Origin: Octopus sinensis
Lineage: Eukaryota
Assembly: GCF_006345805.1 (NCBI RefSeq)
Contig: NC_043005.1
Location: 89,280,001 to 89,344,000, forward strand
DNA length: 64,000 bases
Direction: 5' to 3'
The translations under genes and the position numbers were made by a program. Positions 16,361 through 62,100 of this stretch are shown in pieces. The notes beneath the pieces were generated by a model that had not been told where the DNA came from, did not search any database, and saw only the letters and a program-made list of their open reading frames with translations. Each line of letters opens with the position of its first letter. Within the stretch, counting starts at the first letter, position 1.

Positions 16361-18010
16361 TCATCTTCATCATCATCGTTTAACGTCCGCTTTCCATGCT
16401 AGCATGGGTTGGACGATTTTGACTGAGGGCTGGCGAACCAGATGGCTGCACCAGGCTCCAATCTTGATCTGGCAGAGTTTCTACAGCTGGATGCCCTTCC
16501 TAACGCCAACCACTCCGAGTGTGTAGTGGGTGCTTTTTACGTGCTGCCGGCATGGGGCCAGTCACACAGTACTGGCAACGACCTCGCTCGAATCTTTTAC
16601 CTGTGCCACCGGCACAAGTGCTAGTGAAACGACATTGGTAACGATCACGCTTGAATGGTGCCCTTTTATGTGCCATGGATACAGAAGCCAGTTGGCTGCT
16701 CTGGCAACGATCAAGCTTGGATAGTGCTCTTGAATGGTGCACAGGCATAAGTGCGAGTAAGGCGACGCTGGTAACGATCATACTCAAATAGCCGCTCTGT
16801 CAACGATCACATTCGTATGGTGCTCTTTGCACCCTGCTAGCACGAATGCCAGTCATCGAATTGATTTTGATTTTGACTTCACTTGCCTCAACAGGTCTTC
16901 GCAAACAGAGTTTAGTGACCAAAGAAGGAAAGGTACACATAAGCGGGCTGGTTACGCTCCTGGCATAGGCCACAGGTTAAGGTCTCATTTCATAGGCCAC
17001 AGGTTATGGTCTCATTTGGCTTGCCGGTCTTCTCGAGCACAGCATATTTCCAAAAGTCTCAGTCGCTAGTCATTTTCTTGGTGAGGCCTAATGTTTAAAG
17101 GTCTTGCTTCACCACTTCATCCCAGGTCTTCCTGGGTCTACCTCTTCCACAGGTTCCCTCAACCGCTAGGGTGTGACACTTTTTCACACAGCTATCCTCA
17201 TCCATTCTTGCTACATGACCATACCAGCACAGTCGTCTCTCTTGCACACCACATCTAATGCTTCTTAGGTCCAACTTTTCTCTCAAGGTACTTACACTCT
17301 GTCGAGTATGCACACTGACATTACACATCCATCGGAGCATACTGGCTTCATTCCTTGCGAGCTTACGCATGTCCTCAGCAGTCACGGCCCATGATTCAAT
17401 GCCATGTAGCATAACTGTTCGTACACATGCATCATACAGTCTATCTTTTACTCTGAGCGAGAGGCCCTTTGTCACCAGCAGAGGTAAGAGCTCTCTGAAC
17501 TTTGCCCAAGCTATTCTTGTTCTAGCAGCTACACTTTCAGCGCACCCTCCTCCGCTACTGACTTGGTCACCTAGGTAACGGAAGCTATCAACTACTTCTA
17601 GTTTTCCTCCCTGGAATGTGGCGGAAGTTGTTCTCTGCACATTTTCAGTGTTTATTGCCCCCGAGCATCTGCCACATATAAAAACTATCTTCCCAGTTAG
17701 CCTCCCTTTGATATTACTGCACCTCTTATGTGTCCATAGCTTACACTGGGTACATCTTATAGAGTTTCTACCAATGCCTCCACTACAGATCTAGCAGGGC
17801 CATCTACCTGAAGGGATTTGTGGTTTGCCTTCCTTCCTACTTATTGGGACTTTGGTTTTAGCTAGGTTGATTTTAAGGCCCTTCGATTCTAATCCTTGTT
17901 TCCACACTTGAAACTTCTCCTCTAGTTCTGATAGTGACTCAGCAATTAGAGCAAGGTCGTCAGCATAGAGGAGCTCCCAGGGGCATCCTGTCTTGAATTC
18001 CTCTGTTATA
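16361..18010 (-). mobile_element. RTE LINE 3' fragment, same family as 59125-62285 but a different 3' UTR
   Basis: ORFs 17791..18123 and 17095..17640 are nearly identical to the RT C-terminus (ITEEFKTGCPWELLYADD...RGRPRKTW); in-frame stop at 17791; (CAT)n at 16361. Confidence 0.93.
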
Positions 18011-22760: not shown

Positions 22761-24754
22761 CCTTGTAGGAAAAGAAGAGTTGTACAATGTTCATCTTCTG
22801 GGTGCAGTCATTTGATGACAATTGAGAAATTTTCATACCTGGCCCTCCCACTAATATGGTGTTAGTTTTGTACATGCAATGACAGCTTCTTTTTTATTTT
22901 ACGATTTTGTGATTGCCATAGTTTTTGGTATGTTTTTTGTTTTGTTTTAGTCTTTTTTACAGCTGGATGCTCGGTTACCAAATTCTCTACAAAATAAACT
23001 AGACATACCATATTGTGCCACAAGCACTAACTAAAGATGAAAGTATTCTAAACAGTTTATTTTTAGAGTTACACTGCAGCTTGGGGAGCCTATGTCTCCT
23101 CTGTGTGTTAAGGCAGAACCCTTATTGTTAACTGTTGGGTTTGCTTGGATTTCCCAAAGTGCTTTTTGGATTATCTTTGTTCCTGCAAAACCACGTCTCT
23201 CCATTGTGTTGGGGGAGGAAGAGGTTTGCGCAAGATGCCAGACACCTTTTAGTCTGCAGCTGTAGCGAAGGCATGTGGCCAAGTGGTTAGGGTATTTAGC
23301 TCACAGTCATAAAGTTGTAAGTTCAATACCTAGTAGCAGTGCATTGTGTCCTTGAGCAAGACACTTTATTTCACATTGCTCCAGTCCACTCAGCTGGCAA
23401 AGATGAGTTATACCTGTAATTCAAGGGGGCCAGCCTTGTCCCATTCTCTGTCATGCTGAACCTTCCTGCACGTATTTGTTTCCTGTGAGCCTTTCCATTG
23501 ATTGGATCAACTGGAACCTTCGTCATTGTAACTGATGGAGAGCCAGGTTTTTTTCAGTCTGCAGCAGGTGGGCTTAAGATTATCCCCTATATGGAAGGTC
23601 GAAAAGGATGAAAGGCAAAGTTGACCTCAGAGAAATTTAAAACGTAGTGGCAGATGAAATACCGCTAAGCATTTCACCCGGCATGCTAACGATTCTGTCA
23701 GCTCACCATCTTCAATAATAATAATGATAATAATCATAATCATAATAATTTAGTTCATGTTTAATCTCATGTTATCCTTAATCTAGCAGACATATGATCA
23801 AAGGCATTCCAGGCAAGAATAGCTTGTCTTTTATTGAGCCATAGTGTATCTAGGACTACATTATCAAATATGCTTTCTCTTATTTAAGATGACTGGTAGG
23901 GAGGTGAGAGAGATTTGATTGCTATTTCTAGCAGATTAAGTGACCTTGTAGAGGCTCTCTCATTATTAATCTGGTTTTGTCTATGTTGTAGGTACAAATG
24001 TGAAACAACTTCAGAGTTGTTTTGAGTTGATTAAAATAATAATTTACAAGTGTTTTTTGTTTTATTTGATTAATTATATTTTATTAATGATAAGCTTTGA
24101 TTCAGATTTAACAACAATTGATGTATCAAAGAAATTCCATTATTTACATTCGACGGACATTTGTCCTCATCTTGTTTGTTGTTAACACAACGTTTCGGCT
24201 TCATCAGATATCTTGGAGAAATTGGGGAAATACCTAAGGTATTTTTTGATGTTTTTATTATCATTCAGATCACTGCCTGGAATTGAACTCGGAATCTTGG
24301 GGTTACTAGCCCGTGCTCTTAACCACTACACCATGGGGTAGATTTTAGGGCTTATAAATCTAATATTTTCCTATCCTTCCTTAATACTGGTTCCCATATG
24401 CTATTCATATCTGCACTCGGTCTGCTTAGGAGGTTGTTGTGTCCTAGCATATGTTCTGCTTCTTTTTGTTTTCATATTTTTCAGTGGTGTTCTCTGTTTA
24501 TCATCCTACAGGGGGCAGTGGTCTGCATTTTTCCATACATGATCAGCTATACCCCTGTGGGATAAAGTTAAAATAATAGATAGAGAACACCACTGGAAAA
24601 TACGAAAACTAAAAGAAGCAGCGCATATACTAGGACACAACAACCTCCTAAGCAGACCGAGTGCAGATATGAATAGCATATGGGTGCTGATATTAAGAAA
24701 GGATAGGAAAATATTAGATTTATAAACCCTAAAATTCACTCCATAATTGCCCAT

Positions 24755-24827
24755 AGGCATATGGCGTAGTGGTTAAGGGCGCTGGCTACTAACCTCAGGA
24801 TTCCAAGTTTGATTCCAGGCAGTGACC
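24755..24827 (+). promoter_or_regulatory. tRNA-derived Pol III A-box/B-box cassette inside the Penelope 3' region
   Basis: TGGCGTAGTGGTTAAG (A box), anticodon-like arm ggctactaacc, gtttgattcc (B box; GTTCAATTCC in the opposite arm). The acceptor stem does not pair, so this is not a tRNA gene. Confidence 0.6.
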
Positions 24828-24895
24828 AGAATAATAATAATAATAAAACAACAACATACCTTAGGAAAGAGAACTCAGGTTCGAAATTTCCCCAA

Positions 24896-24941
24896 GACAC
24901 CTGATAAAGGCTGGAGGGTATATCAGCAGAAACGTTGTGTT
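24896..24941 (+). ncRNA. Degenerate hammerhead ribozyme motif
   Basis: gacac-CTGATAA-aggctggagggtatatcagca-GAAACGTT-gtgtt; core G8 changed to A. The opposite-arm copy at about 24184-24213(-) has most of stem II deleted. Confidence 0.55.
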
Positions 24942-25032
24942 AACAACAAACAAGATGAGTACAAATATCCATCAAATGTAAATAATGTAAATAATTCTAC
25001 TTTCCATATTTTTCCTTTTTAACAACTTCTAG

Positions 25033-25267: not shown

Positions 25268-25650
25268 ATGCAGGCATGACTGTGTGATAAGAAGCTTGCT
25301 TCCCAGCCACAGGGATCTGGGTTCAATCCCACTGCATGGCACCTTTGTCAAGTGTCTGCTACAACAGCTTCAGACCAACCAAAACATTGTGAATGAATCT
25401 AGTAGATAGAAACTGAAAGAAACCCATCGTATTTATATATTTGTGTGTGTGGTTGTCCCCCACCACAGCTTGACAACTGGTGTTAGTGTGTTTACATCCT
25501 CATAACTTAGCAGTTCAGCAGAAGGGGCTGATAGAATAAGAACACCAGGCTTAAAATAAAAATAAGTAATGGGGTCTAACCATTTGACTAAATATTGTTC
25601 AAGGCAGTGCTCCAGCATGGCCACAGTCTAATGACTGAAATAAAAGATGG
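25268..25650 (+). mobile_element. SINE family A
   Basis: Full-length diverged copy ending ctccagcatggccacagtc..atgactgaaa. Confidence 0.8.
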
Positions 25651-27105: not shown

Positions 27106-28014
27106 AATGCTAATGTATCAGTTCGTACAGAGATAGATTAACCGTTTAGCATTCAGATTACCCTGTCAAATGTGGCGGGCACCCCAATGGTTACGATCAC
27201 ACAGGTTCCAGTTGATCTGGTCAACAGAACAGCCTGCTTGGGAAATTAACATGGCTGAGTACTCCACAGACACGCATACACTTGACTCAGGGAGATTCAG
27301 ATTGAGACACAGCATGTAACAATTACTGGTACTACTCTGTTTTGCCAGCTGAATGGAGCGGAGCAATGTAAAATAAAGTGTCTTGCCCAAGAACACATCG
27401 CACTGCTGGGAATCGAACTCGCAACCTTACAATCCTGAGTTGAATATCCTCACCACCGAGCCATGACCCCTTCACATTGTTTTGAAGGAATCATGAATTA
27501 CCTCAGTTTTGAGATTTCAAGGACAATGTAGAGTAGGGGTGAGAGGCCAGATCTGGCCAGTTTGAAGAAAACCAGATGGAATATTTTAGCTAGAAATGGC
27601 TGGTTTAAATGCTAAAGAATTAAGAGACTTACCATGAAAAATTGAGGACAGTGGGGATGTCTGAAAGCAAGAAAGAATGTGTTTACCTGGGTGTCATAAA
27701 AACCATTTTCTAAGATATAAGTTAATGTCGTAAAGCATTTGGGAGAGTGTGCCAGTTTGTCAAAGATACGATTCCATGAAGATCTGGTGCTTCTTCATCA
27801 GTAACATGAGTTTGGGCAACTTGTGTGGTTTAGATGAAACAAAGCACATGCATTAGATTTGAACTCAGATCTCTTAAGCTAGCAACTCAACACTTTATCT
27901 GTTTGACCAGTTTCCTTTCACGGCAGAAAACCTGAAATCAATTTCTTTGCCTAGATGCTGCTACATGGGCAAAGTGTTTCTTCAAGTTACACACAAACAC
28001 ATGCTTGCATGCAC

Positions 28015-35763: not shown

Positions 35764-36009
35764 GTAAGTCAGTAGCAATTTGTATTTAAATGACTGCTGG
35801 TTTGTTATTGGTTGTCCTTTAATTGTATTTAGCTTCAAGGTTTGTAAAACAGGCTTAGGGGATCAAATCTTACCAAAGTAGTTATAGACATGTAAAATAC
35901 AGTACATTAGAAAAATGTAAATTTTAGTTCTTAGGATATATAAAATGAAGGAAAAAAATGTAGTATTATTTACATTTGATGGATATTTGTCCTCATTTTG
36001 ATTATTGTT

Positions 36010-36055
36010 AATACAACGTTTCGGCTAATATACCCTCCAGCCTTCATCAGCTGTC
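36010..36055 (-). ncRNA. Minimal hammerhead ribozyme motif; core intact, stem I weakened
   Basis: Reverse complement reads gacag-CTGATGA-aggctggagggtatattagcc-GAAACGTT-gtatt. Confidence 0.65.
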
Positions 36056-36111
36056 TTGGGAGAATTTCAAACCTGGGTTCCCATTCCTAAGGTAAATTTT
36101 CGATGTTGTTG

Positions 36112-36155
<44 letters not shown>

Positions 36156-36343
36156 GTTATTATTCAGGTCACTGCTTGGAATCAAACTCAGAATCTTGGG
36201 GTTAAGAGTGTGGGCTACTAATCCCAAGATTCTGACTTTGATTCCAAGCAGTGGCCTGAATAATAATAATATTAATAATAACAACAACAACAACATCGAA
36301 AAATACCTTAGGAATGAGAACCCAGGTTTGAAATTTCCCCCAA

Positions 36344-36389
36344 GACACCTGAAGAAGGCTGGAGGGTATATCAGCCGAAACATTGTGTT
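36344..36389 (+). ncRNA. Minimal type I hammerhead ribozyme motif (Penelope-type); stem III altered
   Basis: gacac-CTGAAGA-a-ggctgg(agggtata)tcagcc-GAAA-catt-gtgtt. Stems I and II pair. The other three copies have the ACGT stem III. Confidence 0.7.
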
Positions 36390-37724
36390 AACAACAAACA
36401 AGATGAGGACAAATATCCGTCAAATGTAAATAATGTACATAATGTGGTCCTAATGTATCCTAAATATAGTGTCTGACTCTGATGACTAGGCACTCCATTG
36501 GTTCTGGATGACGAGTGTTCCAGTTGATCTGATCAACAAAGTAGACTACTTGTGAAATTGACATGCAAATGGCTGAGTATACCACAGACATGCATACCCT
36601 TTGCGTTGTTATCAGGGAAATTGAACCTGATACAAAATGTGACAACTCAGCTTTGAACCTGATACAAAATGGTACAACTCATTTTTGCCAGCTGAGTGGA
36701 CTGGAGCAAGTTGAAATAAAGTGTCTTGCCCAAGGACACAATGTACCACCAGGAATTGAACTAGTGACTTTATAATTGTGAGCCAAACCCCGTAACCACC
36801 AAGCCATACACCTTTACTAATATGTCCTGAATATAGTGTCTGGAGCAGCTGACATAACATCGATTTCTTCAGTCCAAGAACAGTTTTGGGAGGCAGACAT
36901 TAAAGCTTGATTGAGTCTTAATAGATTTCTGGTGGTTAATTTATTTACCCTGGATTCATTAAATACCAAATTGATGCTGGTAGGATTTGAACTCTGAATG
37001 TTTGGGGAAAAAACTAAACACTATCAAAAGAATTAATTCTTTTATGTGTGTGTAGCATTGCTAACTATGGTAAACCTTCTTTACACCATGGCAGAGTACA
37101 AAGACGGTTCCTGTTGCTTTCCTTCAGGCTTTTCCCCCACAAGACACCTTCCTATTAGTTAAATATTGCTTTCAAATTTTGGCACAAGGCCAGCAATGCT
37201 TGCAGAGGAGGTAAGTCGATTACATGGACCCCAGTGCTCAACTGACCCTTATTTTATTGACTGTCCCCTATACTCCCTACCCACTCAGATACATTAATTC
37301 TATCAAATCAACAGAAATCAATAATTTTCTATCCAAGCTTCGTGCATAAACGAAGGGGTTCAGTTTTGATATTTCGAAGGAAGATTAAATACAAGACAGT
37401 TGACCCAGTAAGCAGGGCCTTAAATTCATGAGTGAACTGTAAAACTATAGTGAGGACGGACCCAAAATGGTGCATGGTTTCTCCTGATGACCCCGGAAAC
37501 CTACTGCTATTCATTATGCAAAGCTTTTGATTGACACTACTTAATCAAGCAAGCAGTTTGCAATTTTTTTTAATCTCTCAAAAACCATCAGTTGGAGTTG
37601 TCTTCCCCTGATCTCTCTGGCATTAGTTCTGCAGTGATGGGTTTGTCTCTGACTCAAACTAATTTTTTAAATGGAAGCAGATTAAATAATCCTTGGGCTT
37701 TAGATTTGTAAAAACCAATTCTTT

Positions 37725-59124: not shown

Positions 59125-62100
59125 GACTTCAATGGACATGTTGGACGGCACGTCGGGGGCTTCCATGGTGTACATGGAGGCTACGGTTTTGGTTCTCGCA
59201 ATGAGGAAGGAACCAGGCTGCTGGAGTTCTGCAATGCAAATGACCTTATGGTTTGCAATACCAACTTCAGGAAACCCACCTCTCACCTAGTCACCTACCA
59301 TTCTGGCAGACACACTAGCCAGATTGACTACATCCTCGCCAGAAAGAGGGAAAGAGGGCTGCTTATAAATGCCAAAACCTCCCCAGGCGAAGAATGCACT
59401 CCTCAACATAGATTAGTAGTTAGCAACTTCAGGATCAGGGCTAAATGGTTGCCCAGAAGACCTGCTTGGAGGAGAAGGGTCTGGAAGCTTAAAGATCCTG
59501 CAAATGGACAGAGATTTAGAGACGTACTACTCAAAGTCTTCGATGAAATAGAAGGGGATATAGCTTCACATAACATGGAAGAAAACTGGAAGTTTCTACG
59601 GGACAATCTACTGACAGCTACTGACCAGATCTGTGGATGGAGCAAAGTCCCATCTCGACCCAGGGTAACGTGGTGGTGGAGCAATGTTGTTGACAGGGCT
59701 ATTAGACAAAAGAAACAGGCTTGGAAGGACTGGAAGAACGGTGGTAGCAGGGAAGTGTATCAGACTGCCAGAAGGGAAGCTAGGAGACAGGTTTATTTAG
59801 CCAGAGGGGAAGCAGATAAGAAAAAATTTGCCAATGTTCTGCGCCGTGAGGACCAAACACTTGAGGTATTTTGTGTTGCAAGACAGTGTGTGAGAGAGAA
59901 TCGTGATGTGGTAGGAGAAAAATGTGTTCGCATGGATGATGGTTCACCTGCGCTAAATGAGGATGCAAAGAGAGAGGTTTAGCGATGCCACTATGAAAGG
60001 TTGCTGAATGAGGAAAATGAATGGGATAAAGAGAGTCCGCCGAATGTCGACCCAACAGAGGGACCAGCTATCCGAGTTGACAGTTCTTTGGCAGTTAAGG
60101 CAATTAGAAGCATGAAGACAGGGAAAGCCCCAGGCCCATCAGGAATTACTGCAGAGATGCTCAAAATATCTGGCAGTGTCGGCTATAGCCAAGTCACCCA
60201 TATAGTTAACCAGGTGATACACGAAGGAGTCATACCCAATGACTGGTGTAGCAGCATAATAGTCAACTGCTACAAAGGTAAAGGTGACGCTTTAGATACA
60301 CATAATTACAGAGGTATCAAGCTGTTGGATCAGGTAATGAAGGTTATGGAGAGGGTCATAGCCCAACTGATTAGGGAGAGAGTCAGCTTGGATGAGATGC
60401 AGTTTGGCTTCGTGCCAGGGAAAAGCACCACTGATGCTATATTTCTGGTAAGACAGCTGTAGGAGAAATACCCAGCCAAAGATAAGCCTCTGTACCTGGC
60501 TTTTATTGACATGGAGAAAGCCTTTGACAGGGTCCCCCGATCCCTTATCTGGTGGTCAATGAGGAAACTAGGGATGGATGAATGGTTAGTGAGAGCTGTA
60601 CGAGCCATGTACAGGGACGCTATTAGTAAGGTGGGGGTTGGCAATGAGTACAGTGAAGAATTCCAAGTAGAGGTTGGGGTCCACCAAGGTTCAGTCCTCA
60701 GCCCCCTCCTATTTATCATAGTCCTCCAAGCAATAACGGAGGAATTCAAGACAGGTTGCCCCTGGGAGCTCCTCTATGCTGATGACCTAGCCCTAATTGC
60801 TGAGTCACTATCAGAACTGGAGGAGAGGTTTCAGGTGTGGAAGCAAGGATTAGAATCGAAGGGCCTTAGAGTCAACCTAGCTAAAACCAAAGTCGTAATA
60901 AGTAGGAAGGTAGACAAATCACAAACACCTTCAGGTAGATGGCCCTGCTCGATCTGTAGAAAAGGCGTAGGTAGAAACTCTATAAGATGCACCAAGTGTA
61001 AGCTATGGACACATAAGATGTGCAGCAATGTCAAAGGAAGGCTAACTAGGAAGATAGTTTTTGTGTGTGGCAGATGGTCAGGAGCAATAAACACTGAAAA
61101 TACGCAGAGACCATCTTCCGCCACATTCCAGGGAGAAAAACTAGAAATAGTTGATAGCTTCCGTTACCTAGGTGACCAAGTCAGTAGCGGGGGTGGGTGT
61201 GCTGAAAGCGTAACTGCTAGAGTAAGAATAGCCTGGGCAAAGTTCAGAGAGCTCTTACCTCTGCTGGTGACAAAAGGCCTCTCGCTCAGAGTAAAAGGCA
61301 GATTGTATGACGCATGTGTACGAACAGCCATGCTACATGGTAGTGAAACATGGGCCGTGACTGCTGAGGATATGCGTAAGCTCGCAAGAAATGAAACCAG
61401 TATCCTCCGATGCATGTGTAATGTCAGTGTTCATACTCGACAGAGTGTAAGTACTTTGAGAGAAAAGTTGGACCTAAGAAGCATCAGTTGTGGTGTGCAA
61501 GAGAGACGTTTGTGCTGGTATGGTCATGTGGTGAGAATGGATGAAGATAGTTGTGTGAAAAAGTGCCACACCCTAGCGGTTGAGAGAACCTGTGAAAGAG
61601 GTAGACCCAGGAAAACCTGGAACGAGGTGGTGAAGCACGACCTTCAAACTTTAGGTTTCACCGAGGAAATTACTAGAGACAAAGACCATTGGAAGTATGC
61701 TGTGCGTGAGAAGACCCGGCAGGACAGGTGAGGCTATAATCCCATGGCCTCTACCTGGGATGTAGCCAGCCCACTTATGCATTCCTTTCCTTCTTGGGAC
61801 ACAAAACTCCACTTATGAAGACCTGTTGAGGCAAGTGAAAATCAAAATCAAAATCAAAATCGTAATCTATCAACATCAGTGGAATTTGTAGCTGTGATAC
61901 CAGTGCCAGTGGCACGTAAGAGAACCATCTGAACATGGCCGTAGCCAGCACCACCCTGACTGGCTTCCGTGCCGGTGGCACGTAAAAAGCACCATCTGAC
62001 CGTGGCCGTTGCCAGCTCCGTCTGGTCTCTGTGCCGGTGGCACGTAAAAAGCACCATCCGATCGTGGCTGTTTGCCAGCCTCATCTGGCACCTGTGTCGG

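Follow-up and report, generated by a model that had tools for sequence, protein, structure and literature searches.

The window, the whole 64,000-nt stretch of octopus DNA analysed here, carries at 24139-24995 two inverted, 5′-truncated copies of a Penelope-like element (PLE), probably of the Poseidon type; a second inverted pair, of short copies, lies further along (Table 1). Each arm of 24139-24995 comprises the end of the PLE open reading frame (ORF), a stop codon, a tRNA-like head, an AAT/AAC run, a hammerhead-like motif and a tail. Thus, every module that the original prediction assigned to the two arms is present in both of them, but an intact hammerhead is present in neither. The right-arm motif reads CTGATAA, with loss of the core G8 and of the stem II closing pair, and in the B box of that arm two positions have undergone CpG-type changes. 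The recurrence claimed for 35965-36443, truncated in the tRNA-like part, was confirmed as an inverted pair in which both arms are broken inside the head. Each hammerhead motif there has a break in stem I or stem III, and the hammerheads of the window are damaged in all four copies (4/4). The 57-aa ORF piece at 24549-24725 gave no match in Pfam. A tiny upstream ORF (Met-Ala-stop) lies in the head at 24761-24769, ahead of the main ATG.

Table 1 Positions of the PLE-derived features in the window
Feature	Position	Strand	Description
PLE-end copy, left arm	24139-24552	−	Inverted, 5′-truncated: ORF end, head, damaged hammerhead, tail
PLE-end copy, right arm	24549-24995	+	Forms inverted pair with left arm 24139-24552 (−)
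Left-arm hammerhead remnant	24184-24212	−	Stem II gone, 17-nt deletion
Left-arm tRNA-like head	24268-24339	−	A box 24333-24323, B box 24290-24279; initial bases deleted
PLE ORF C-terminal end	24549-24725	+	Past GIY-YIG motifs; stop TAA 24723-24725; aligns to P0006 end
TATA-like hexamer	24721-24726	+	Overlaps stop, 35 nt 5′ of head
Short palindrome, 12 nt	24748-24759	+	Where family copies most often begin (position −8); fold-back junction site
tRNA/SINE-derived head, 73 nt	24755-24827	+	A box 24762-24772, B box 24805-24816
(AAT/AAC)n run	24830-24856	+	Length variable
Family ORF start-codon site	24867-24869	+	AAG in right-arm copy
Minimal type I hammerhead motif	24896-24941	+	Damaged; predicted cut after 24936; overlaps ORF codons 10-24
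AC-rich tail	24942-24995	+	Ends at first of two family 3′-end clusters (putative RT start sites)
Second locus, left arm	35965-36215	−	Short copy, break within head
Second locus, right arm	36200-36443	+	Short copy from head position +15; no ORF upstream

To count copies genome-wide, exact matches were collected over the 2.7-Gb genome, with backwards-pattern controls that gave zero. A DNA search for the module returned 5,944 first-look candidates, of which 40 were scored. Exact 20-mer counts were 926 just before the head, 4,938 in the head, 7,780 after the AAT run and 12,110 in the tail, and by these counts short copies exceed ORF-linked ones at the head by about 5 to 1. Conservation was even among the first three 20-mers (16, 17 and 14 of 29 copies). 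These genome-wide matches demonstrate that the module is a family feature and not a chance SINE insertion, as had been predicted. Copies diverge from the column majority by ~5.5% at non-CpG sites, and thus the family is probably inactive now.

RT and GIY-YIG motifs were found 5′ of the best copies, and one locus, L251, is full length. With head positions counted from 0 at window 24756, L251 starts at −3 and runs through the head, AAT run, ATG, hammerhead, tail, RT, GIY-YIG and stop into a second head. Its ATG frame passes through the hammerhead, which occupies ORF codons 10-24 with the predicted cut 70 nt past the ATG, and shows 42% identity to P0006 over 177 aa, the hammerhead-coded stretch included. 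At L251:2600-2710 the tail-to-ORF junction is present three times and the hammerhead stem II is shortened.

Structurally, the family is a genuine PLE. It has a single ORF with a PLE-type RT followed by a C-terminal GIY-YIG, the RT being called from an RVT_1 match with an E value of 8e-6, below cut-off, and the GIY-YIG piece from motifs and the P0006 alignment, without a Pfam match. It also has a partial tandem or pLTR arrangement (the head at both ends of L251), inverted truncated arms and, in its two clusters of 3′ ends, the counterpart of the optional 30-40 nt tail of such elements. The order of its domains, its motifs and its resemblance to PAc make assignment to the Poseidon type likely. 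A search for other PLE families in the same genome returned this family alone at 30/30 loci, that is, one Poseidon-type family. The closest protein relatives are 56-69% identical; proteins of the barnacle Amphibalanus amphitrite (56% identity; P0010 cluster) are among the closest named relatives of the RT, and horizontal transfer is possible. Of the words sampled from the module, half or more were present in 20 public sequencing runs, under five organism codes, with no RNA run among the matches listed.

The intact 46-nt hammerhead has 761 exact copies in the genome. In its family form it is a minimal type I hammerhead, with a CUGANGA/GAAA core, an extra base after A9, stems I and II and a palindromic 15.2-16.2, and these features match those described for minimal PLE hammerheads (PMC4209133). 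The identification of the motif as a PLE minimal type I hammerhead therefore holds for the family, of which the four window copies are damaged members. In the hammerhead alignment, 97% of cells are paired and this young, star-like family shows no covariation. The core is intact in 19 of 63 copies, and both stems are intact too in eight. For the window module, Rfam gave no hammerhead or tRNA match and ARAGORN no tRNA; such models can miss hammerheads of the minimal type and heads that have decayed.

The tRNA likeness of the head rests on its A and B boxes and on its alignment to host tRNAs (27 distinct tRNAs, six amino acids only), which scored above shuffles with a best z of 6.6 for tRNA-Arg-TCT. 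No cloverleaf was predicted for the head (folding z +0.9 and +0.3). The head resembles other SINE heads of the same genome, and its B-box form also occurs in another host SINE family (4/6). In bearing a tRNA-related head with A and B boxes at their 5′ ends, the short copies resemble tRNA-derived SINEs. No free SINE family with exactly this head on another body was found in 1.27 Mb of own-genome loci, which yielded related heads only. Short copies at first seemed to have a better-kept B box (p 0.0002), and this difference was gone (p 1.0) without the loci chosen by window-copy likeness, so the apparent excess came from selection bias. The tRNAs near control loci L331 and L392 were considered as heads and rejected.

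The window contains other repeats as well. Copies of two or more other abundant SINE families with tRNA heads lie at 23267-23400, 25270-25450, 27328-27471 and 36671-36814, and one of these families has the B-box form of the PLE head. Two LINE fragments at 17026-18009 and 60733-61716, which we take to be RTE-like, cover the RT C-terminal part and are 90% identical in opposite orientation. Elsewhere, several tRNA-Cys genes and variants are clustered within 3 kb at locus L421.

The copies begin preferentially at the head. An unbiased set of 73 copies was drawn from tail matches on contig C1, the first ~70 of them being taken. In this set, 26 of the 36 copies that reach +20 stop within −23 to +20 and the other 10 read through. 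The stopping hazard per nt is 0.026 at the head (P ~1e-14), reaches 0.008 in the AAT run and otherwise stays at 0.002-0.004; the 5′ stopping rate at the head is about 8 times background. In sets anchored on the hammerhead and on the post-AAT sequence (125 copies, partly overlapping), 53 of 58 stop at the head. The expected preference for starts at the tRNA 5′ end was thus seen in each set. Copies that continue into the ORF behave alike: 75 of 104 tail-to-ORF junction copies continue into the ORF for 100 nt or more; the head is reached by 11 of the 75, and 9 of the 11 stop there. With two copies added, 10 of 13 ORF-continuing copies start at the head; the three others read through, and thus some RNAs spanned more than one unit.

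The 5′-end mode is −8, at the 12-nt palindrome. Many junctions continue as the fold-back of this palindrome, and some at −3 use microhomology with the inverted tail, so the exact start base is blurred. Of the copies that extend as far as the AAT run, about a quarter begin within it, in many cases joined to host AAT tracts of greater length (L521-L590, L031-L120); these ends may come from microsatellite targeting, recombination or alignment loss. Given the concentration of copy 5′ ends at the head, the RNA of the element most likely starts there, and we hold a start at the tRNA head to be highly probable. The cassette, described at first as a 3′ module, makes better sense as the beginning of the element: it also stands 5′ of ORF-bearing copies, and the hammerhead lies in the ORF start.

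The 3′ ends of 95 perfect-hammerhead copies fall mostly at two sites ~30 nt apart, with 45 at 122-129 nt and 42 at 149-165 nt past the ATG. None of the 95 ends at the predicted cut and none runs into the ORF. An inverted arm lies upstream in 55 of the 95 and downstream in none. A 5′-end cluster at the hammerhead cut was considered and rejected (3/73 in the unbiased set; hazard 0.005 against 0.004). The absence of copies with an end at the cut shows that self-cleaved RNA did not serve as template; what the PLE machinery reverse-transcribed was uncleaved RNA, which is also the case for PAc. With 3′ ends at the cut in 0/95 and 5′ ends there in 3/73, the copies argue against both a mobilised RNA that ends after GUU and a retrozyme-like unit, each of which had been proposed. 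Dimerisation of the head-to-head motifs within one transcript would be precluded, since they lie on opposite strands; the full-length RNA would instead carry two same-sense hammerheads.

Which polymerase made this RNA is a separate question. Judging from the sequence, we lean slightly towards Pol III, which would have transcribed the whole unit from the captured promoter and left the short head-hammerhead-tail copies as by-products. In an alignment of 23 long copies with 2,990 majority columns (2,584 covered by at least three copies), the sense-strand shared runs are T4 0, A4 34, C4 9 and G4 0; that G4 is also zero argues against a T4 signal. Zero- to second-order Markov models expect 5.9, 2.5 and 1.5 T4 runs, and zero occurred in 0/400, 8% and 21% of trials, respectively. 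In a synonymous shuffle of 20 decayed copies, T4 occurred 18 times against 57 expected (0.32), with ratios of 0.92 for A4, 1.10 for C4 and 0.82 for G4. By comparison, T4 occurred 391 times against 320 expected (1.22) in 53 related PLE loci without such a head, which are distant (~30-50% identity) metagenome contigs retained from 80 at a threshold of at least 400 codons, a duplicate being dropped. Two of these 53 controls are T4-free, and four are at or below 0.33. Since the octopus copies share one source sequence, the depletion reaches only p ~0.03-0.08 (~0.03-0.05 by the codon shuffle), which is support and not proof. T4 is at expectation in the two LINE fragments of the window (2 against 0.9 and 1 against 0.8 expected). 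The first T run after host tRNAs is most often T4 (10/27), and five of the 27 have no T run within 40 nt.

RNA made by Pol III is uncapped. The weak TATA-like hexamer, the length of the unit, the translation of uncapped RNA and the RNA-read depth all argue against Pol III, and the copies that read through the head (10 of 36 and 3 of 13) count against this reading as well. In three unstranded RNA runs of one organism code, no pile-up of molecule ends was found; read depth tracks genomic copy number, and the palindrome fold-back is the commonest loose end at its place (451, 348 and 353 reads). According to the available part of PMC10886601, Pol III lacks the processivity that autonomous elements would need.

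One alternative is initiation by Pol II at this very site, either from the weak TATA-like hexamer (−35) or from an internal initiator-type promoter, in which case the head would be a passenger and the lack of T4 would be chance. A capped RNA would solve the problem of translation, and the promoter of D. virilis Penelope is internal and TATA-less, like those of Drosophila LINEs, according to the accessible portion of PMC2377424. The hexamer is present in its weak TATAAG form, at a plausible distance, in 23 of 25 ORF-linked copies, but a strong TATA is found in only 1/25 and a CCAAT box in 3/25. Among 17 hammerhead cores of relatives, three have a strong TATA 43-48 nt upstream, eight have CCAAT and none has a B box within 160 nt upstream. 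In PLEs of other animals (L329, L330, L331 and L392), CCAAT and TATA stand just 5′ of the hammerhead, and such pairs before relatives' hammerheads are a candidate Pol II pLTR promoter. Against Pol II in the octopus family, the start falls on a head whose A and B boxes are retained though its stems have decayed, and the depletion is T-specific. A G before the boundary, a possible cap trace, occurs in only 2 of 15 copies ending at −8, which is a weak point because fold-back masks it. Together, we consider a Pol II start unlikely.

Somewhat less probable again is that Pol III makes only the short head-hammerhead-tail RNA, as a PLE-dependent SINE with its own sources, and that the coding RNA comes from Pol II. 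The numerical excess of short copies at the head would fit this, as would the retention of both boxes in 9 of 23 heads. Perfect-hammerhead copies seldom extend upstream (2/42 against 10/36, p ~0.01), and one linked variant is commoner in head-start copies (15/24 against 6/21, p 0.036). Yet the head also starts ORF-continuing copies (10/13), both linked variants occur in short and ORF-linked copies alike, and no terminator was found 3′ of the tail. Short copies have no private alleles in a comparison of 70 short with 73 ORF-linked copies. With a head shared with full-length copies, no private alleles and a weak skew, the short copies do not show source genes of their own, distinct from those of the partner. 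The proposed Penelope-mobilised SINE thus stands in one part, as the short copies bear the hallmarks of PLE insertion, and falls short in the other, as they have no private alleles and only a weak subfamily skew. We favour the short copies being a by-product; secondary amplification of some of them is possible. Finally, that the pile-up is an artefact of RT, through stalling or fold-back at the palindrome or at a tRNA-like fold of a longer RNA, or else an RNase P cut, is improbable: fold-back junctions lie frequently and exactly at the palindrome, with microhomology to the inverted tail at some of the −3 junctions, but the palindrome has just 12 nt and is passed by RT in every ORF-end copy, the head has no cloverleaf fold (z +0.9, +0.3), and the stretch from stop to ATG has no other boundary except the AAT run, with an RNA start that must precede the ATG.

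Following the Pol III reading, the family could have arisen and spread as follows. A tRNA/SINE head would have been captured 5′ of the ORF, where it took the position of the pseudo-LTR promoter. Transcription would begin ~8-10 nt before the tRNA-like +1 and, since it meets no TTTT terminator, would run through the ORF and sometimes into the next unit. Initiation of RT at the tail sites nearest the RNA 5′ end would produce the abundant ~250-nt head-hammerhead-tail copies, and initiation at distal tail sites the ORF-end copies like 24139-24995. The cDNA that reaches the RNA 5′ end may often fold back at the palindrome and thereby give head-to-head pairs. The hammerhead is an ordinary PLE minimal hammerhead and the template was the uncleaved RNA; the protein possibly came from Pol II read-through of some copies.

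It is tempting to speculate further that an autonomous protein-coding element swapped in a tRNA-gene promoter, was transcribed by Pol III end to end (~2.7 kb) with a coding strand purged of TTTT, and spun off SINE-like hammerhead copies by the thousand from its 5′ end, which would illustrate how SM-alpha-like units could be born from Penelope; for this picture as a whole we see the chances as evenly balanced. If it is true, an autonomous retrotransposon has used a polymerase thought to be limited to short non-coding RNA and non-autonomous elements, and Pol III transcription raises the question of how the RNA was translated. Either way, a tRNA-headed hammerhead unit is tied directly to the PLE that mobilises it, a link that, in the available portions of the sources cited below, has been proposed for retrozymes and is unnamed for SM-alpha. 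The accumulation of short copies at one point also makes it possible to map where PLE RNAs start using only the genome sequence.

Among known PLEs, as described in the accessible part of PMC11167929, the family is closest to Penelope/Poseidon elements such as PAc of Anolis, which has one ORF with RT and then GIY-YIG, an ORF start at or just before the hammerhead (here the ATG is 5′ of the hammerhead), two internal RT start sites 30-40 nt apart that give rise to the tail, and insertion without need of hammerhead cleavage. Inverted truncated arms are likewise known from PLEs (PMC8557442, in part). Unlike PAc, whose promoter is merely presumed in the pLTR, the octopus family has a tRNA-derived head in the promoter position that marks copy 5′ ends; it also differs from D. 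virilis Penelope, with its Inr/DPE-type internal promoter (available text of PMC2377424). Such a head is unmentioned in the available portions of PMC8557442, PMC13282606 and PMC6962438. A tRNA-headed PLE or Pol III-driven autonomous retrotransposon was not found in the full-text literature covered, a scope that leaves most subscription papers, Repbase and Dfam outside.

Comparable small-RNA-derived Pol III promoters lie in the terminal repeats of Cassandra, Helenus and Ajax ('TRIMp3'), for which an origin by SINE capture has been proposed; these are non-autonomous LTR elements of <1.3 kb, whereas the head here is on a 2.7-kb coding PLE, and the autonomous partners of 'TRIMp3' are argued to need Pol II (PMC10886601, in part). 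Non-LTR retrozymes are similar in being short hammerhead units related to PLE pLTRs, and have been proposed as non-autonomous PLE derivatives (bioRxiv 10.64898/2026.07.22.740005, PMC7229834, both in part). They are tandem repeats with circular RNA intermediates, unlike the copies examined here, which are monomers or inverted pairs, and a Pol III head goes unmentioned in the available text of bioRxiv 10.64898/2026.07.22.740005.

A close parallel to the cassette itself is in Schistosoma, where SM-alpha and Sj-alpha have a tRNA-related Pol III promoter followed by a hammerhead and reach high copy number (PMC6765202, PMC2770079, each in its available part). The combination of hammerhead and Pol III promoter, of which the original prediction knew no description, was thus already known from SM-alpha, and what is new here, as far as the literature covered goes, is a tRNA head on an autonomous PLE. 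In the same sources, SM-alpha and Sj-alpha are non-coding, often tandem and freed by cleavage, with no partner element named. The octopus unit, by contrast, is the start of an autonomous PLE, dispersed or head-to-head and copied uncleaved.
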